A DNA stretch of 64,000 nt from an uncultured Acidimicrobiia bacterium (GCA_964195315.1 CAXMOZ010000015.1:31995-95994); one strand, 5' to 3'; positions 160 through 55,187 are shown, counted from the first letter of the stretch. Numbers and translations: made by a program. Notes: generated by a model not told the origin, from the letters alone.

Positions 160-1161
160 ATGAAACCTAGCCCTATTTCAGCTACCGTGCCTTTCGATCA
201 GGATGGCATTCATCATGGTTTTCTTCAACTGCCCCATAGTCGAGATGATTCAGCCTGGGGGGCGATAATGATACCCATCTGTGTGGTGCGCAGTGGTGAA
301 GGTCCTACCGCATTATTAACTGGGGCTAACCATGGTGACGAGTACGAAGGTCCCGTTGCTCTGCAAGACCTGGCTTATAGTCTTGATGCAACTAAAATAA
401 CAGGGCGGGTGATAATCGTTCCTGCGTTTAACTATCCAGCCTTTCGTGCCGGCAAGCGCACATCGCCCATCGATGCCGGTAATTTGAATCGCACCTTTCC
501 TGGTAAACCGGATGGCACTATCACTGAAAAAATTGCTGATTATTTCCAACGTAATTTAATTCCCATGGCCGACTATGTACTCGATATTCATGCTGGCGGA
601 AAAACTCTCGACTTCCTGCCTTTTGCTGCGGTACATATCCTCGATGACAAAAAACAACAGGCCGATTGTGTTGCAGCGATGGAAGCATTCAATGCGCCTT
701 ACTCGATGATGATGCTAGAGATCGATAGCGATGGTATGTATGACACTGCGGTCGAAGAGCAAGGTAAGATTTTTGTTTCTACAGAACTAGGTGGTGGAGG
801 ATCATCTACTGCAAGGTCGAACGCGATCGCTAAAAAAGGTGTGCGCAACTTGCTGGTTCATGCCGGCATTCTAAAGGGGGCAGTGGAGACAGCTGAAAGC
901 GCCATGCTGGACATGCCTGATGGTGATTGCTTTGTGTTCAGCGAAAGTGATGGTTTGGTTGAATATATGAAAGACCTGGCAGACCCAGTAGAAAAAGGAG
1001 ATTTGATTGCGAGAGTTTGGCCAGCTGATCGAACAGGTGCAAAGCCATCCGAATATCATGCAAAAAGAAACGGCATATTGACCTCACGTCACTTTCCCGG
1101 ACTAATCCAAATGGGAGATTGTCTCGCGGTAGTAGCGGAAGAAGTTGGTCGGCTAGATTAG
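160..1161 (+). CDS. Succinylglutamate desuccinylase/aspartoacylase (AstE/AspA) family deacylase; DoeB/EutE-like N-acyl-amino-acid deacetylase
   Basis: 333-aa ORF. Family-typical layout: a His/Glu-rich 'GANHGDEYEG' zinc-site-like motif near the N-terminus and a 'DIHAGG' motif mid-protein. Size matches DoeB-type enzymes. Homology judged by eye, not searched. Confidence 0.65.
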   Translation: MKPSPISATVPFDQDGIHHGFLQLPHSRDDSAWGAIMIPICVVRSGEGPTALLTGANHGDEYEGPVALQDLAYSLDATKITGRVIIVPAFNYPAFRAGKRTSPIDAGNLNRTFPGKPDGTITEKIADYFQRNLIPMADYVLDIHAGGKTLDFLPFAAVHILDDKKQQADCVAAMEAFNAPYSMMMLEIDSDGMYDTAVEEQGKIFVSTELGGGGSSTARSNAIAKKGVRNLLVHAGILKGAVETAESAMLDMPDGDCFVFSESDGLVEYMKDLADPVEKGDLIARVWPADRTGAKPSEYHAKRNGILTSRHFPGLIQMGDCLAVVAEEVGRLD

Positions 1162-4015: not shown

Positions 4016-4447
4016 TTAAAGCTGACTATCGAGTAACAAGTTGGTTTCGGTTTGTAAAATACCTTCGATGAGCCGTATCTCCCCCATAATTGAATTTATC
4101 GAGGGCAATGTTTGAGCGCGTATATCGGCGATGATATCCCAATGCCCAGTTGTATGATGAATAGCAATCACTTCCGGATAGCCTCGTAACCGTTTAATGA
4201 CTGCGGGCTCATTTTTAGCCTCGACTGAAATATTCATAAATAACCTGACCGGGTGGCTTTCCGCATCGGGACTGAGTTTTACGGTATAACCTAGAATTAC
4301 ACCCTCTGCTTCCAGTTTATTTATTCGGTTTTGAACAGTGGCGCGTGATACAACAAGATGCCTTGCCAGGTTGACCACAGGCGTTCGTGCATTGGAACGT
4401 AACAGCGCAATTAAGCTGAGATCTTTATCATCTAGTTTTTTAGGCAT
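4016..4447 (-). CDS. Lrp/AsnC-family transcriptional regulator
   Basis: 143-aa ORF with an N-terminal HTH (DLSLIALLRSNARTPVVNLARHLVVSRATVQNRINKLEAEGVI) and a C-terminal RAM/AsnC_trans domain. Divergently transcribed from the OCD-like gene. Confidence 0.85.
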   Translation of the reverse strand: MPKKLDDKDLSLIALLRSNARTPVVNLARHLVVSRATVQNRINKLEAEGVILGYTVKLSPDAESHPVRLFMNISVEAKNEPAVIKRLRGYPEVIAIHHTTGHWDIIADIRAQTLPSINSIMGEIRLIEGILQTETNLLLDSQL

Positions 4448-4598: not shown

Positions 4599-5648
4599 AT
4601 GACTCTATTTGTAGATGTACCCACTCTGGGAAAGATAGTGAGGAAAGTAGGAACCGAAGAATTCATCAATGGCTTGCTGAACTGTTTAGAGCAAGATTTC
4701 TCACGCTGGGAAGATTTTGATAAGTCTGCACGAACCGCTGCTCACAGCGATACTGGCGTTATAGAGTTAATGCCCGTTGCCGATAAAGAAAGCTACGCCT
4801 TCAAATATGTTAATGGGCATCCATCTAACCCTTTGCAAGACTTTCCGACTGTGATGGCTTTTGGAGCGCTATCGGATGTATCAACCGGCTACCCACGACT
4901 GTTATCAGAACTGACCTTGTCAACCGCACTGCGCACCGCAGCGACGTCTGCTATGGCAGCAAAAGCACTTGCCAGAAAGGATTCTCGTATCATGGGAATG
5001 ATTGGCTGTGGCGCGCAGAGCGAATTTCAAGCGATTGCCTTCCATACCATTGCTGGCATAGACGAGTTACGAATTTTCGATCTTGATAAAGCTGCGATGA
5101 GTAAAGTTGAACAGCATTTAAGTAGGCTTCCAAATCTGAAAGTGATCAAAGCTGAGACGGCAAATGACTGTGTGCGCCGAGTAGATATTGTCACCACGGT
5201 TACCGCAGATAAAACATGGGCGACTATTTTGACAGCGGATATGATTGAGCCTGGAATGCATATCAATGCTGTGGGCGGAGATTGTCCCGGGAAAACTGAA
5301 TTAGATATTAATGTACTTAAATCGGGAAAGATTTTCATAGAGCATGAGCCTCAAAGCCGGGTCGAAGGTGAGATTCAGCAGCTACCTTCGGATCATTTGG
5401 TCTATCCGCTTTGGCGTGTCATTGCGGAATTAGATGTAGGACGCGAATCAGATCAACAAATCACCATATTTGATTCTGTGGGATTCGCCCTTGAGGATTT
5501 TTCAGTATTACGTTATATATTTTCTCTGGCAACTAAATACAATTTTGGAGAAACAATTTCATTGGTTCCAAGACTTGAGAATCCGAAGGATTTATTTGAA
5601 CTGACTCTTCATTCCTTCGATAAATCTAGTGCTCAAAAAGTGGCCTGA
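4599..5648 (+). CDS. Ornithine cyclodeaminase/mu-crystallin family protein (EutC-like)
   Basis: 349-aa ORF with a Rossmann NAD-binding motif (GMIGCGAQSEFQAIAF) and overall OCD/mu-crystallin family architecture. Confidence 0.8.
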   Translation: MTLFVDVPTLGKIVRKVGTEEFINGLLNCLEQDFSRWEDFDKSARTAAHSDTGVIELMPVADKESYAFKYVNGHPSNPLQDFPTVMAFGALSDVSTGYPRLLSELTLSTALRTAATSAMAAKALARKDSRIMGMIGCGAQSEFQAIAFHTIAGIDELRIFDLDKAAMSKVEQHLSRLPNLKVIKAETANDCVRRVDIVTTVTADKTWATILTADMIEPGMHINAVGGDCPGKTELDINVLKSGKIFIEHEPQSRVEGEIQQLPSDHLVYPLWRVIAELDVGRESDQQITIFDSVGFALEDFSVLRYIFSLATKYNFGETISLVPRLENPKDLFELTLHSFDKSSAQKVA

Positions 5649-5827: not shown

Positions 5828-6397
5828 TTATTTTTCACTTGCCTGCGAGTTGAACCTAGCTTCTGCTTCTTTGAACCGAGTTTTCACCCTATCTATGTCC
5901 CAGGGGAATTCGTTTAAGGTTTCATGATCCCATTCACTTCTGGGTTCAATGGGATGAAAGAAATCACCACCATAGACATGGATAGCGGTTGTCATTTTGC
6001 CGATTGGATTGAGAACAGAGTGAATGATTTCTTTTCCCAGAGTGTCAACATCGCCAACCCCAAGAGATTTTGCGCCTGCGGCCTCAATACTTGTTTCGTT
6101 TCGCTTCCAGAACACATTGTCTTCCCGACCTGAATATATTCCTATCACAGCAAACATATGATGATCGTGAGGCATTAAGTTCATATAAGGTGCCCAGGCA
6201 AAATTAATTATTGTCAGGTTATGCGCTTTGTAGATAGGGGTAATTCCGGCGCGTTCTGGTTCACCTAATTCAGACATGACCTCCGCAGGATTCGAGACGG
6301 CAGATGCCACTACTTCGCGGACCGCAGCCTGCCCATCTTTCACTGCTTCAATACAATCCTCGATGAATCTTTCCTTTTCAAACATTTTTTTCTCCAT
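5828..6397 (-). CDS. Cupin-fold (double-stranded beta-helix) metalloprotein, cysteine-dioxygenase-like
   Basis: 189-aa ORF with a His-containing cupin motif (…MPHDHHMFAVIGIYSG… HVYGGDFF). Assignment by eye only. Confidence 0.4.
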   Translation of the reverse strand: MEKKMFEKERFIEDCIEAVKDGQAAVREVVASAVSNPAEVMSELGEPERAGITPIYKAHNLTIINFAWAPYMNLMPHDHHMFAVIGIYSGREDNVFWKRNETSIEAAGAKSLGVGDVDTLGKEIIHSVLNPIGKMTTAIHVYGGDFFHPIEPRSEWDHETLNEFPWDIDRVKTRFKEAEARFNSQASEK

Positions 6398-6498
6398 AGC
6401 TGTGATGGTTTGGCGTTACCAAACCATCACATCGGGTTCTATACCGGGTAGCAGTTGAATTGAAAATTGATGCCACCGTCTGCTTGAGATGGTTGCTA

Positions 6499-6759
6499 TC
6501 AGTTTGCCTTCTCTTTCAGTTGGGCACGTTCTATTAATAACGAAATAATTTTAATGGAACCCCAAATCATTATTGCAGCAGCGATGATGAGCATTCCATT
6601 GACAACATTTTGATCGTTTAATAACGGATGAAATGCGTTTCCGCTTGAACCAAACTTTCCGTAAAGTCCTAAGCCCACCAATATTGAGGCTGGAAAGTCC
6701 ATAATAGCGATATTCCTAATTTCTTTTTGTATTTCATTGATTCGTTCTACAGAGTTCAT
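6499..6759 (-). CDS. Small hypothetical membrane protein
   Basis: 86-aa ORF with two hydrophobic helices (ILVGLGLYGKF…, MLIIAAAIMIWGSIKIISLL). It sits between the dioxygenase-like and cupin genes on the same strand. Confidence 0.35.
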   Translation of the reverse strand: MNSVERINEIQKEIRNIAIMDFPASILVGLGLYGKFGSSGNAFHPLLNDQNVVNGMLIIAAAIMIWGSIKIISLLIERAQLKEKAN

Positions 6760-6910
6760 AAGTTCATCCTGATTATGTCTTACCTATTACGGTTGACTAT
6801 TTGGTCGGCTCAGATTCCGACATATTCTGTTTATTGTGTCTTTGATGCGGTTCGTGTTTCATCATGTCCTACGTGGTTACGTTAGTTAATCGAGTCGATG
6901 GATGATCAAG

Positions 6911-6944
6911 CTGTAGGCCGGAAAAGCGCAGCGCCTTCCGGCTG
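6911..6944. repeat. REP-like extragenic palindromic element, copy 1 of 3
   Basis: Sequence gtaggccggaaaagcgcagcgccttccggc contains a gccgga…tccggc hairpin. It shares a 'gtagg[gc]cggaaaagcgcagcg' core with the copy at 11706-11770. Confidence 0.6.
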
Positions 6945-7094
6945 ACTCTTAACAACAGCGGCCCCAGTTGATAATCGTGTTATTTTTCAAACACCTGTTT
7001 GGAGTATTAGCACGATGGTCACGCCTGATGGCGCCATAGTCTATCAGACCTACGTTGGTTACAACGCCGACACCAATTCCTACGCTAGCCGATT

Positions 7095-8243
7095 TTATGC
7101 TTTATCGAGACGTTTTTTCAATACCCGTAACCGACTTTGAAATTCTGAACGGTCAATATAACAACCGCGTAAATGTCGGTTTCCTGTGGGTTCAAATGCT
7201 TCTCGGCCATGCAATACGCGACGGTTATCAAATACTGCCATTGTGCCTTCGGTTAGTTTTAGAGCTATACGGTATTTTGGTGAGCGCACTCGGGCCATCA
7301 GTTCACGATAAGCCAAATAGTAGTCATGCATAATATCTTCTGGCAGATCGAAAATACTAGCCAGATGAGCATTGTATTTTAGCTCGATAATATTGCCTTG
7401 ATGATCGAGATTTATGACCGGGTGATGGTGGTAAATGTCGTGTTCGTCATCGTGAAAGCGAAACGGTATTGCATGATTAGCCAGCAATTCAAAATGCTCA
7501 TTATCTTCTAAGCGTAACTCTTCGAGTATTCTCAGGCCATCGGCAAAAAGTGATTCACCACCAGCACTTTCATTGGCGAGGCAGTGTAGGAATTGATAGC
7601 CGGGTGGTGTTTCCTGATTCGATAAATCGGTATGCAGGGGTAGGGCCAAAGCGGTATAGGCCAAATTGGTTGGCTTAGGTTCTGTCTTTACCTCAAACGT
7701 AATGCCAAAATTAGTTTGGCGCTGGTAGTCGATACGGTTAGTGACTTCGTTCAATGCCGTTTTTGTCGAAGGCATATTCTGAACGAGGCTAAGACCATCC
7801 TGATCAAGTTGTTTCATCCAAGCATAAAGTGCTTCATTGTCTTGCATTAAATCGATGTAGTTAACGCTATTGATTTGATCCAGAAAACTATTATCCCAGC
7901 TTCTCGAGGCTGGACGATTTCCAGGTTTCAGGTCGCCTGAATAAGCGTGGTTTCGTAACCATGATCCCGGGAACTCACTGTGATGATGCTGCTCCGACCA
8001 ATCAATCAGTAGCTGATCGTTTTCTATTGATACCTTTAGCGGATGTATGTTGGCGCTAATACTCAGCTGGTCAAACACGCGCTCTTGCGTGTCAGGGTGC
8101 AGGGTCGTCGGACAGTTATCTCGAAGCCAAAGAAAATTAAAGCGAGATTGACTGCCGTCACTCCAAATTAAATCTAGACAATGTTGTTTTTGACTGACGG
8201 ATTGCAATAAAAATATGGGGTTAACGACTGGCAACACGTACAT
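7095..8243 (-). CDS. Gamma-butyrobetaine hydroxylase-like Fe(II)/2-oxoglutarate dioxygenase (TauD/TfdA family with N-terminal DUF971/GBBH-N domain)
   Basis: 382-aa ORF. The N-terminus (LIWSDGSQSRFNFLWLRDNC) resembles the GBBH/TMLH N-terminal domain. The C-terminal part is TauD-like with an HxD…H triad (LPLHTDLSN … RVLHGREAF). Confidence 0.65.
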   Translation of the reverse strand: MYVLPVVNPIFLLQSVSQKQHCLDLIWSDGSQSRFNFLWLRDNCPTTLHPDTQERVFDQLSISANIHPLKVSIENDQLLIDWSEQHHHSEFPGSWLRNHAYSGDLKPGNRPASRSWDNSFLDQINSVNYIDLMQDNEALYAWMKQLDQDGLSLVQNMPSTKTALNEVTNRIDYQRQTNFGITFEVKTEPKPTNLAYTALALPLHTDLSNQETPPGYQFLHCLANESAGGESLFADGLRILEELRLEDNEHFELLANHAIPFRFHDDEHDIYHHHPVINLDHQGNIIELKYNAHLASIFDLPEDIMHDYYLAYRELMARVRSPKYRIALKLTEGTMAVFDNRRVLHGREAFEPTGNRHLRGCYIDRSEFQSRLRVLKKRLDKA

Positions 8244-8329
8244 TACTCCGGATATAAAAGGCGCACTATAATAGAATTAGTAAATAAGTATTAAATGAAT
8301 AATTATGTGCTTTGTAATAAGCTCAGCTA
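8244..8329. promoter_or_regulatory. Divergent LysR/dioxygenase promoter region with a candidate LysR-box (ATTAaatgaaTAAT at 8290-8303)
   Basis: 86-bp AT-rich region between divergent starts. It contains an imperfect dyad matching the T-N11-A LysR-box pattern. Not experimentally supported. Confidence 0.35.
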
Positions 8330-9259
8330 ATGCATAAAACCACCATACAATTGCCGCCACTGAACTGGTTAAAAACCTTTGTCGTCGCAGCCCAATTGCT
8401 GAACTTTACCTCAGCAGCAAAAGATTTAAACATGACGCAATCGGCTGTCAGCCAACAAATAAAATTATTGGAGAGCCACCTGGGGCAGGCACTTTTTCAC
8501 CGCCAGCATAAAAAGCTAACATTAACGAATACCGGAATGGCTTACCTGCCAACAGTCCTGCAAGCGCTAGAGGCAATTCAACGCTCTACTCAGGACCTCT
8601 TCACGCCCTTGAAGTACGGTATTCTCACAATTCAAGTCAATACGGCATTTCTTCTACTCTGGTTAACACCTCGAATAGCAGATTTTATGTGCCTCTATCC
8701 TGATATTACCTTGCGAATAATGAGTATAAACTGGAATACCGATCGACTGGCTATGTCTAATGATTTGATCATCGATCATGGCAGAGGCGCGTGGCGTAAT
8801 AGGGAAGTACATCGTTTATTGACACCAAAACTACGGCCTTTTTGCTCGCCTGAAATAAAACAGAAGTTGCATAATGGAATGGACTTGGGTGATTTTTCGC
8901 TAATAGATATTATTGGCAATCAACAGCAATGGGGGGACTGGCTCAAAGAAACGGGATTGGTCATACCGTCCCGATCGATTAGACACCAGGTTGATACTAT
9001 GGCTACTGCTGCCCAGTTAGCCAGATTAGGCGTTGGAATGTTCTTAAGTTATGACGAACTGTTAGAAGATGATATACGCAACGGGGCACTGATTGCGCCA
9101 TTTGATAGATATATCGATACCGTTGATAGCTATTACCTGACGCATGATAATGATAAACCATTGAGCAAGACAGCTGAACTATTCAAAAACTGGCTGTTGA
9201 GTCTTTTGGGTGGGCAAGACGTTTTAGCGCAGGCCTTAGAGAGTAAAAATTCCGATTAG
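8330..9259 (+). CDS. LysR-family transcriptional regulator
   Basis: 309-aa ORF with an N-terminal HTH (LKTFVVAAQLLNFTSAAKDLNMTQSAVSQQIKLLESHLGQALF) and a LysR substrate-binding domain. Divergent from the dioxygenase-like gene. Confidence 0.85.
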   Translation: MHKTTIQLPPLNWLKTFVVAAQLLNFTSAAKDLNMTQSAVSQQIKLLESHLGQALFHRQHKKLTLTNTGMAYLPTVLQALEAIQRSTQDLFTPLKYGILTIQVNTAFLLLWLTPRIADFMCLYPDITLRIMSINWNTDRLAMSNDLIIDHGRGAWRNREVHRLLTPKLRPFCSPEIKQKLHNGMDLGDFSLIDIIGNQQQWGDWLKETGLVIPSRSIRHQVDTMATAAQLARLGVGMFLSYDELLEDDIRNGALIAPFDRYIDTVDSYYLTHDNDKPLSKTAELFKNWLLSLLGGQDVLAQALESKNSD

Positions 9260-11680: not shown

Positions 11681-11705
11681 GATTTCTTAGCGGACAAGAT
11701 TTAAC

Positions 11706-11770
11706 CCGTAGGGCGGAAAAGCGCAGCGTTATCCGCCGCATGTATTGACGAATTCATCATCGCCCTACGG
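11706..11770. repeat. REP-like palindromic element, copy 2 of 3
   Basis: Terminal inverted repeats cccgtagggcg … cgccctacgg flank a gaaaagcgcagcg core. The stop codon of the minus-strand alpha/beta-hydrolase gene (rc of cta at 11765-11767) lies inside the right arm. Confidence 0.6.
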
Positions 11771-53125: not shown

Positions 53126-53566
53126 ATGAAATATTTGCATACCATGGTGAGAGTTAATGATCTTGACGCGTCTCTGGCATTTTATTGTGATTTGCTGGGG
53201 CTGGTTGAGACCAGTCGAACTGTTTATGAAAAGGATGAATTTACGCTAGTGTTTTTAGCAGCGCCAAATGACGTTGCCCAGGTTGAAGCGGAGCGAGCAC
53301 CATTGCTAGAGCTGACTTACAACTGGGGCGGCGAGGTTTTTCAAGGGGGTAGAAACTTTGGTCATTTAGCCTTTGCAGTGGATGATATTTACGCCTTATG
53401 CCAAAAGATGCTGGATAACAATGTAACCTTAAACGTACCTCCGAGAGATGGCCACATGGCTTTTGTTCGCTCGCCCGATAATATATCGATTGAGTTATTA
53501 CAAAATGGCAATGCTTTGCCAGTGAGCGAGCCTTGGCAATCTATGTCGGTTACTGGGGAATGGTAG
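53126..53566 (+). CDS. gloA: Lactoylglutathione lyase (glyoxalase I, VOC family)
   Basis: MKYLHTMVRVNDLDASLAFYCDLLGL… is collinear with E. coli GloA ([20 protein letters not shown]…). The start was moved to the ATG at 53126; the track begins at an upstream TTG. Confidence 0.75.
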   Translation: MKYLHTMVRVNDLDASLAFYCDLLGLVETSRTVYEKDEFTLVFLAAPNDVAQVEAERAPLLELTYNWGGEVFQGGRNFGHLAFAVDDIYALCQKMLDNNVTLNVPPRDGHMAFVRSPDNISIELLQNGNALPVSEPWQSMSVTGEW

Positions 53567-53746: not shown

Positions 53747-53797
53747 CACTGCAACGCAACTATTGCACCATGATGGTGCGATAGTTGCGTTGCAGTG
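53747..53797. promoter_or_regulatory. Large near-perfect palindrome in the glgC upstream region (candidate operator or RNA hairpin)
   Basis: Arms cactgcaacgcaactattgca… / …tgcgatagttgcgttgcagtg: about 20-bp arms with one mismatch and a roughly 7-nt spacer, about 115 bp upstream of the glgC ATG. Confidence 0.5.
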
Positions 53798-53912: not shown

Positions 53913-55187
53913 ATGAAAACAACCAATCAGAGCCGCTACGTCAGCCGTCTTGCAAGCGAAACCTTAGCACTGGTATTAGCCGGAGGTCGTGGCTCGCGCT
54001 TATACGAACTCACCGACTGGCGAGCAAAACCGGCAGTCCCCTTCGGTGGCAAATTCCGCATCATCGATTTTCCACTTTCAAACTGTATCAACACTGGCAT
54101 TCGCCGCATTGGTGTTTTGACCCAATACAAGGCTCATTCGTTGATTCGTCATCTGGTTCGTGGCTGGAGTCGTTTCGATAGTGAGCTAGACGAATTTGTC
54201 GAAATTTTGCCTGCTTCACAGCGCGCAGGTGGCGAGTGGTATCAAGGCACTGCAGACGCTGTTTTTCAAAATCTCGACATCATGCGTACGCATCGACCCA
54301 AATATGTATTGATCTTGTCGGGAGACCATATCTACAAGATGGATTACGGTGACATGCTTGCCACCCATCATGAAAAAAAATCTGATATGACTATTGCTTG
54401 TCTTGAAGTGCCAATCGAAGAGGCCGCAGGTGCATTTGGTGTGATGACGGTTGACGAGTCTGGTCGTATTATCGAGTTTAATGAGAAACCGGCCCATCCT
54501 GCAGAGATACCTGGTCAGCCGGGATTTTGTCTCGCCTCGATGGGTAACTACTTATTTAATACTGAGTTTCTTTATGAGCAGCTTATTAAAGATGCCGACA
54601 CTTCAAAATCTACTCATGATTTTGGAAAAGACATTATCCCTTCGGTGATCGACAAGTATCAAGTTCATGCCTACCCGTTTCGTGACATGGATACCGGCGA
54701 ACGCGCTTATTGGCGTGACGTTGGAACACTGGATGCTTTCTGGGAGGCGAATATGGAATTGGTCAACGTTACGCCAGAATTAAATCTCTACGATCAACGC
54801 TGGCCGATTCTGACCCATCAAGCTCAAATGCCACCAGCCAAGTTTGTATTTGATCTTGATGAGCGTCGCGGCATGGCAACCGACTCAATGGTATCAGGAG
54901 GCTGCGTGATTTCCGGTGCGACGGTGAAACATTCGTTATTATTTTCCAACGTACGTGTCCACTCTTATGCAGAAATAACCGATAGTGTCATCTTGCCGGA
55001 TGTCGATATAGGCCAAAATGCGAAGATTCACAAAGCCATTATCGATCGAGGTTGCACCATTGAAGAAGGCATGGTGATTGGCCACGATCACGAAGAAGAT
55101 AAAAAACGCGGCTTTCGAGTAACCGAAAAAGGTATCGTATTGGTGACGCCAGATATGTTAAACCAAAACACCCACCTGAGTCGTTAG
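53913..55187 (+). CDS. glgC: Glucose-1-phosphate adenylyltransferase
   Basis: 424-aa ORF: [43 protein letters not shown]…, the canonical ADP-glucose pyrophosphorylase N-terminus. Confidence 0.95.

Follow-up and report, generated by a model that had tools for sequence, protein, structure and literature searches.

A LysR-linked dioxygenase of the γ-butyrobetaine hydroxylase/TmpA family with a pocket signature of its own and a probable onium substrate

γ-Butyrobetaine hydroxylase (BBOX), which makes L-carnitine from γ-butyrobetaine, and TmpA, which hydroxylates 2-(trimethylammonio)ethylphosphonate (TMAEP) in phosphonate catabolism, are the closest described relatives of a marine clade of Fe(II)/2-oxoglutarate (2OG) dioxygenases whose genes are annotated, as a matter of routine, as "γ-butyrobetaine dioxygenase" or "TauD/TfdA family dioxygenase." The roles of the TmpA pocket residues, phosphonate-binding Arg288 and Asn287, are taken here from PMC9296572, which also gives N293 as the substrate-binding Asn of human BBOX (hBBOX); the literature differs on which Asn binds. 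Simon et al. (2017; PMC5437341) relied on the annotation "γ-butyrobetaine dioxygenase" for a marine-gained trait of Rhodobacteraceae and inferred carnitine synthesis as a marine adaptation. We analyzed a member of this clade in a 64-kb stretch of DNA from an uncultured Acidimicrobiia bacterium (GCA_964195315.1, CAXMOZ010000015.1:31995-95994); the whole stretch is called the window, all coordinates refer to it, and the region under study is 5828–9259. Here the dioxygenase gene (7095–8243, minus strand) is divergent from a gene for a LysR-type regulator and is followed on its own strand by genes for a small hydrophobic protein and a cupin. The comparisons below make it likely that the functional unit consists of LysR and the stand-alone oxygenase gene of the BBOX/TmpA family, that its substrate is an onium compound, and that the two downstream genes are unrelated to it.

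The domain content of the 382-aa dioxygenase places it in the BBOX/TmpA family. Pfam GBBH-like_N (PF06155) matched residues 16–97 with 47.3 bits (cut-off 22.8) and TauD (PF02668) residues 126–362 with 154 bits. The Fe triad H204/D206/H345 and the 2OG arginine R356 were invariant in an alignment of 76 relatives, and their counterparts are H202/D204/H347/R360 in hBBOX and H198/D200/H341/R352 in TmpA. A reading made earlier from the window alone (the sequence-only reading) had proposed an N-terminal GBBH-N/DUF971-like domain joined to a TauD/TfdA core with an HxD...H triad, and an enzyme of the GBBH-like rather than the taurine or alkylsulfonate dioxygenase type; both proposals agree with these domains and residues. 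Among PDB structures, the protein matched TmpA (6npb, 7e-62), hBBOX (6e-50), and DfmD (5e-48), with identities of about 35% to TmpA and 28% to hBBOX. The curated equivalog models of NCBIfam were all matched below their cut-offs: BBOX (TIGR02409), the best-scoring model, with 327.4 bits against 414.75, TmpA (NF049936) with 320.3 against 400, and trimethyllysine dioxygenase (TMLD) with 221 against 268. Ten relatives (46–73% identity) also scored below the equivalog cut-offs, with 300–348 bits under the BBOX model. As judged by these profiles and residues, the protein is a genuine member of the BBOX/TmpA superfamily, and its clade falls outside each of the characterized enzymes as curated.

The clade is widespread. 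Each collection scan returned more than 550 relatives confirmed by tblastn, from marine alpha- and gammaproteobacteria that include Leucothrix, Oceanospirillales, Psychrobacter, roseobacters, and Kiloniella. The genome scan gave 80 dioxygenase loci, and the closest relative there came from an uncultured Leucothrix metagenome-assembled genome (MAG; 73% identity); by this match, the window would probably stem from a Leucothrix-like bacterium of the Thiotrichales.

The substrate pocket combined residues shared across the family with residues particular to the clade. Comparisons with BBOX used the human enzyme. N193 and the positions F179/F183/Y196/Y362 were invariant among the 76 relatives; the latter four align with the aromatic cage of hBBOX, Y177/W181/Y194/Y366. 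Of the Asn residues given for carboxylate binding in hBBOX (N191 plus N292/N293), N191 and N292 have N193 and N291 as counterparts, and the second residue of the tandem pair is Ala292. Four further residues (L207, N209, E211, and H293) were invariant in the clade, and A292 was found in 68 of the 76 relatives. Positions 207/209/211 thus read L/N/E in the clade, in contrast to N/Y/D in TmpA (N201/Y203/D205) and Y/A/H in hBBOX. H293 occupies the site of the phosphonate-binding R288 in TmpA and of A294 in hBBOX, and A292 a site that is Asn in both (TmpA N287, hBBOX N293), so that the clade signature can be written as L207-N209-E211 plus (N/S)291-A292-H293.

These pocket positions track function, because the TmpA signature N207, Y209, D211, and R293 is found again in a more distant homolog that has an HD-domain partner. 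This homolog lies on plasmid pF045_1 of a cystic-fibrosis isolate of Pseudomonas aeruginosa (L186:4917-6642), where a LysR-divergent, TmpA-like dioxygenase gene and an HD-domain gene are followed by genes for a choline ABC-binding protein, a choline dehydrogenase, and an aldehyde dehydrogenase; from its gene content, the cluster looks like one of the TmpAB type, converting TMAEP to glycine betaine.

The 3Cys-1His zinc site of BBOX, which in hBBOX consists of C38, C40, C43, and H82, survives by half: of its ligands, C44 and H87 remain, C40 is replaced by Thr/Ser, and C43 is not conserved. A clade-invariant H49 stands beside the lost C43 position and possibly forms an alternative metal site. Because the clade falls short of three curated cut-offs and has a pocket signature of its own, the annotation "γ-butyrobetaine dioxygenase" is to be treated as unproven for its members.

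The regulator gene (8330–9259, plus strand) encodes a protein of 309 aa with HTH_1 and LysR_substrate domains. It is closest to the GcvA subfamily, whose model it matched with 219 bits, under the cut-off of 288, and it was also under the cut-off of the choline-sulfate-regulator model. LysR and dioxygenase diverge across an 86-bp spacer, and the same arrangement, with an orthologous LysR (43–86% identity) adjoining the dioxygenase, was found at 22 loci analyzed in detail from Leucothrix, Marinobacterium, Amphritea, Aliamphritea, Neptunomonas, Neptuniibacter, Marinomonas, Psychromonas, and one Psychrobacter. Further pairs were present at 9 of 80 metagenome loci, and plasmid-borne, more distant GBBH-like genes are likewise LysR-divergent. 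When the neighbors of the dioxygenase were clustered, LysR was its sole constant partner.

The spacers share an operator-like dyad. All 22 contained ATTA-N7-TTAT in the same register, with the consensus CATTAGC-N3-GCTTAT. In the window, the dyad ATTAGCTGAGCTTAT (8317–8331, minus strand; T-N11-A, half-sites ATWAGC) is the only exact match in the 64 kb, and the LysR start codon shares its first 2 nt with it. The sequence-only reading had pointed to a candidate T-N11-A box in this spacer, and such a box is indeed there and conserved in 22 of 22 spacers. The dyad is centered at about −66 relative to the transcription start that a sigma-70-like promoter candidate (8265–8294, minus strand; TTAATA, 18 nt, TATAGT), found in a consensus scan, implies for the dioxygenase. 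A box-anchored comparison of the 22 spacers revealed a second conserved block, AATTATTCATTTAATAC (8288–8304, minus strand; AAT...T.GTTTG-like), downstream of the dyad and overlapping the −35 hexamer. LysR-type transcriptional regulators (LTTRs) usually have a recognition site near −65 and an activation site over −35 and, given this layout, the second block is a candidate activation site of LysR. In the promoter and terminator scans, the numbers of matches were at or below shuffle expectation, and such matches are therefore used as positional hints only. Control of the dioxygenase by LysR, as the sequence-only reading had supposed, is strongly backed by the conserved synteny and the operator dyad, from which we infer binding.

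Apart from LysR, the most frequent neighbor of the clade was a BCCT transporter gene, present within one to three genes at about 10 loci and, at three of these, immediately 3' of the dioxygenase in the same orientation. The neighboring BCCTs passed only the generic BCCT model, scoring under the glycine-betaine, BetT, and CaiT models, and the BCCT subtype was dropped as a clue to the substrate for this reason. A betaine-aldehyde dehydrogenase gene (BetB) adjoins the dioxygenase in L049, L131 and L139 have BetB-like genes (53–55% identity) and L113 has an aldehyde dehydrogenase gene; a gene of the TauE/SafE sulfite-exporter family adjoins it in Kiloniella-type loci. In a Cocleimonas MAG (L022:7188-9748), a dioxygenase ortholog (58%) is followed after 96 bp on the same strand by an equivalog of the dimethylsulfoniopropionate (DMSP) lyase DddP (874 bits against a cut-off of 600), an adjacency that hints at sulfonium metabolism in this one lineage. 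Many loci had housekeeping neighbors such as thymidine kinase, and no carnitine dehydrogenase was noticed next to any clade member. Carnitine catabolism was considered for the surroundings of the 83% ortholog and rejected, as the BKACE gene there matches the 3,5-dioxohexanoate:acetyl-CoA acetone transferase equivalog and not the dehydrocarnitine cleavage enzyme. The invariant cage, the BCCT neighbors, and the scores below three equivalog cut-offs make the suggestion of the sequence-only reading, an uncharacterized oxidative step on an osmolyte-like quaternary amine, a reasonable one.

The same comparisons argue against the three-gene operon that the sequence-only reading had placed under LysR. 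Among approximately 165 related loci, the gene order of the window was kept only in contigs of its own lineage (L100–L103). Searches with tblastn found the cupin and the 86-aa gene at none of 85 genome-derived dioxygenase loci, flanks of up to 10 kb included, and at none of 79 more loci from metagenomes except L103, which is 99.7–100% identical to the window; outside the window's lineage, this amounts to 0 of ~160 loci, with relatives of each gene residing in unrelated contexts. The 88% ortholog shows the order LysR, dioxygenase, and a convergent MarC gene in the place of the small gene and cupin, with genes for a BCCT and a GlpD-like protein upstream; downstream of the 83% ortholog lies an M24 protein gene that matches no equivalog; and, over the LysR-linked loci, the gene downstream of the dioxygenase is convergent in about half and variable in the others. 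Within the window, the dioxygenase and the 86-aa gene are separated by 335 bp and the 86-aa gene and the cupin by 101–113 bp (about 113 bp to the likely cupin start), each gap containing a hairpin, and a promoter-like site before the small gene (6799–6772) was not above chance. An operon in which LysR governs all three genes, their products acting on one osmolyte-like substrate, would agree with the shared minus strand, with the order kept in L100–L103, with the lack of a canonical terminator between the genes, and with the occurrence of ergothioneine dioxygenase, an enzyme whose substrate is a betaine thiol, among the structural matches of the cupin. An ergothioneine link between cupin and dioxygenase was itself rejected, there being no conserved co-occurrence. 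Given the loci that lack both genes, the MarC gene of the 88% ortholog, the unrelated contexts of both families, and the two gaps with their hairpins, we regard such an operon as improbable. A functional operon is thus not supported: the juxtaposition appears to be lineage specific, with co-transcription by read-through a possibility, and for the window itself the practical result is negative.

The choice among substrates turns on the pocket and the neighbors. An ordinary bacterial γ-butyrobetaine hydroxylase, making L-carnitine as an osmoprotectant or as an entry to carnitine catabolism, is a serious possibility, though a tentative one. It would account for BBOX being the best NCBIfam model, for the counterparts of the two hBBOX Asn residues and the conserved cage, for the BCCT neighbors, for the γ-butyrobetaine hydroxylase-type names given to relatives in JGI and NCBI MAG records, and for the carnitine-synthesis trait of Simon et al.; it has to contend with 11 of 11 clade members tested scoring 65–115 bits under the BBOX equivalog cut-off, the 28% identity to hBBOX, the replacement of N293 by Ala and of Ala294 by an invariant His, the L/N/E in place of Y/A/H at 207/209/211, the half-kept zinc site, and the carnitine dehydrogenase missing from the neighbors noticed. 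Much the same tentative standing is given to a third specificity, for an anionic onium compound that is shorter or of another kind: β-alanine betaine, DMSP, N,N,N-trimethyltaurine, choline-O-sulfate, or phosphocholine. The last three would be hydroxylated at the carbon bearing the leaving group, yielding sulfite, sulfate, or phosphate together with betaine aldehyde. This specificity would fit the residues H293, A292, L207, N209, and E211, which at the anion-binding positions are unlike those of both solved relatives, and the scores under all three equivalog cut-offs; it would also fit the BetB, BetB-like, and aldehyde dehydrogenase neighbors, the TauE/SafE-family gene, and the DddP directly downstream in Cocleimonas, and choline sulfate and putative taurine betaine have been reported in ocean particulate metabolomes (bioRxiv 10.1101/2024.07.18.604132). 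However, each of these contextual hints comes from one or a few lineages while most loci have uninformative neighbors, the clustering of bet genes with many kinds of quaternary-amine function has generic reasons, and the literature search found no biochemical precedent. That the enzyme is a TmpA ortholog, hydroxylating TMAEP in phosphonate catabolism, is very improbable: TmpA is the closest solved structure and its model gives 320 bits, but the score is under the 400-bit cut-off, the phosphonate-binding R288 and N287 are replaced by His and Ala, no HD-domain (TmpB-like) partner was seen among the Pfam-annotated neighbors of the window or the related loci, and the plasmid homolog that does have an HD partner keeps the TmpA signature. 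Given the clade's own anion-binding residues, a different substrate seems about equally likely as γ-butyrobetaine; we consider it most likely that the enzyme hydroxylates a small zwitterion of the trimethylammonium or sulfonium type under LysR control.

Some observations weigh against a LysR-dioxygenase unit acting on an onium substrate. No strong intrinsic terminator was found 3' of the dioxygenase, so that transcription could read through into the small gene and the cupin; the promoter candidate of the dioxygenase is given by its position, promoter-like matches being not above chance; and BLAST with the neighbor set found no BCCT, BetB, carnitine-catabolic, or other betaine-related gene in the 64 kb of the window. 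In the searchable literature, we found no experimental data on any member of the clade, and the regiochemistry proposed below is carried over from BBOX and TmpA. The same literature held nothing specific on bacterial marine γ-butyrobetaine metabolism or trimethyltaurine catabolism.

The preferred reading of the locus as a two-gene unit would work as follows. A GcvA-like LysR, transcribed divergently from a single-gene dioxygenase transcription unit, would bind the dyad ATTAGC-N3-GCTTAT; as this dyad abuts the start codon of LysR, autorepression of the regulator is suggested, and the second conserved block over the −35 hexamer would probably mediate inducer-dependent activation of the dioxygenase. 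The enzyme would bind a small zwitterion with a trimethylammonium or similar onium head group, in other genomes often imported by the neighboring BCCT transporter, and hydroxylate it at the carbon next but one to the cationic center, by extrapolation from BBOX and TmpA. The default candidate for the reaction is the conversion of γ-butyrobetaine to L-carnitine.

It is also possible, if tentative, that the marine clade forms a third functional type in the BBOX/TmpA family, whose natural substrate would be an onium compound that is abundant in the sea and is neither γ-butyrobetaine nor TMAEP. If so, osmolytes and sulfur in the sea would cycle by an additional, new route under a dedicated LysR sensor: trimethyltaurine or choline-O-sulfate might be oxidatively cleaved to betaine aldehyde and sulfite or sulfate, or DMSP or β-alanine betaine might be hydroxylated. 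The conserved LysR partner and its operator provide a handle for finding the true substrate, through reporter fusions or ligand screening of the regulator.

The two genes downstream of the dioxygenase lie outside the conserved unit. The cupin gene (5828–6397, minus strand) encodes 189 aa as called. Its homologs have 185 aa and all begin with MFEKD/ERF, and the second ATG (6385) has GGAG 6 nt upstream; because of this agreement, the start is most likely at 6385, giving 185 aa. Pfam gave no match for the protein even at E ≤ 10, CDO_I (PF05995) included. A profile built from 30 diverse homologs matched no PDB structures other than those of thiol dioxygenases, namely 3-mercaptopropionate dioxygenase (MDO; 6xb9) with 1.5e-16, cysteine dioxygenase (CDO), and mercaptosuccinate dioxygenase. 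The AF2 model (pLDDT 97.2) had MDO/CDO structures as its top Foldseek matches (6xb9/4tlf; TM ~0.7, probability 1.0), together with ergothioneine dioxygenase and plant cysteine oxidase. The assignment of the 189-aa protein to the cupins by the sequence-only reading is thus borne out by both profile and model. The putative metal ligands H73, H75, and H122, the second-sphere H136, and R149 were invariant, and Y138 nearly so. The family has 1456 representatives at E ≤ 1e-3 and is unusually conserved, with 70–80% identity across beta- and gammaproteobacteria; JGI labels the cupin a [quoted passage not shown] and its relatives stood beside unrelated genes in every context examined. The modeled protein resembles thiol dioxygenases of the CDO/3-mercaptopropionate dioxygenase type, as an uncharacterized family of its own, and may be a new thiol dioxygenase.

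The small gene (6499–6759, minus strand) encodes 86 aa without a Pfam match. Homologs fell into seven clusters with 48–99% identity, and the motif VGLGLYGKFG-x3-GNAFHPLLND is strictly conserved in the family (~85 aa). The sequence-only reading had seen a two-helix membrane protein; a conserved small hydrophobic protein stands, but the hydropathy profile shows one strong hydrophobic segment and a second that is weak. In gammaproteobacterial contigs elsewhere (L096:5001-5258, L098:5001-5258), the gene comes directly after Beta_elim_lyase, Cupin_2, and Cupin_3 genes. The small-protein gene thus adjoins a cupin gene both there and in the window, the cupins being of different families. In L095, a 77-aa ORF that precedes the cupin gene was considered as a homolog of the 86-aa protein and rejected, as it has no similarity.

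An ORF list reproduced the coordinates of all four open reading frames (ORFs) given by the sequence-only reading. For the dioxygenase, close orthologs have 380 aa (P0002/L101), and the 88% ortholog starts with a GTG that is 8 nt after GGAG; the equivalent position in the window is 8237, and the true start is probably this GTG, giving 380 aa.

The hairpin in the 335-bp gap 3' of the dioxygenase (6913–6942) is the REP-like element that the sequence-only reading had placed between the dioxygenase and the downstream genes. Its presence was confirmed, and by the E. coli REP consensus it looks similar to the palindromic repetitive extragenic (REP) elements of enterobacteria. A second intergenic copy, 82% identical to 6908–6940, lies at 11703–11735 between a MOSC gene and an alpha/beta hydrolase gene, and the two copies share the pattern GTAGG(C/G)CGGAAAAGCGCAGCG...CCG. 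The fold of the first copy is unremarkable (−21.5 kcal/mol, z = −1.2) and has no T-tract, and the terminator scan did not call it as an intrinsic terminator. A perfect stem-loop of 13–14 bp, TGTGATGGTTTGG-TAACG-CCAAACCATCACA (6401–6432, minus strand), lies 16 nt upstream of the likely cupin start. The 121-nt region containing it folds with −38 kcal/mol (z = −4.9); the stem-loop has no U-tract, is limited to the window's lineage, being absent upstream of other cupin homologs, and may serve as an operator palindrome or as an RNA element. Rfam gave no RNA family for the region at E ≤ 1 or for the whole window at the gathering threshold, and ARAGORN found no tRNA or tmRNA genes.

The sequence-only reading had also set the dioxygenase next to a Doe/Eut-like module. 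The gene at 160–1161 (plus strand) is an equivalog of DoeB, N-acetyl-L-2,4-diaminobutanoate deacetylase (594 bits against 402.7), and a same-lineage contig carries an adjoining equivalog of DoeA, ectoine hydrolase (L099:6638-7756; 757 against 613), just past the left edge of the window. By these two equivalogs, the ectoine-catabolism module is real. An AsnC-type regulator gene (4016–4447) and an ornithine cyclodeaminase equivalog (4599–5648) lie between the doe pair and the cupin. The proposed association fared less well than the module: no conserved link between Doe and the dioxygenase was seen, the loci not having been screened for doe genes, and ornithine cyclodeaminase, AsnC, and EamA gave at most weak, scattered matches. 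Elsewhere in the window, a 25-nt inverted repeat (53747–53797), 96% complementary and with 1 nt between its arms, occupies an intergenic position; the ORF before it ends at 53566, and the next one starts at 53913.

Set beside the known systems, the dioxygenase shares with TmpA of Leisingera caerulea (6npb) the GBBH-like_N and TauD fold, the Fe triad, the 2OG arginine, the aromatic cage, and the equivalent of N187; it differs in the change of R288 to His, N287 to Ala, and N201/Y203/D205 to L/N/E, in the lack of an adjoining HD-domain TmpB gene in the window, and in its score of 320 against the cut-off of 400. With BBOX (human 4bg1/3ms5; TIGR02409), it has in common the architecture, the catalytic residues, and the equivalents of N191 and N292, whereas the cage reads F/F/Y/Y in the clade and Y/W/Y/Y in BBOX, the zinc site is cut to C44 and H87 with the clade-specific H49, N293 has become Ala and A294 an invariant His, and identity is 28%. 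The cupin has the fold of the thiol dioxygenases (6xb9, 4tlf, CDO, and mercaptosuccinate dioxygenase), their three-His site (H73/H75/H122), and the second-sphere H136/Y138, and its invariant Arg aligns with the RR pair of MDO; unlike them, it has Ala in place of the Ser of the Ser-His-Tyr triad, an extra C-terminal helix, and no CDO_I match, with about 20% identity. The regulator and its target follow the pattern of other LTTR/target pairs, an HTH_1 and LysR_substrate protein divergent from its target with a dyad near −66 and a second block over −35, and stand apart from them in that the regulator scores under both the GcvA and the choline-sulfate-regulator cut-offs.

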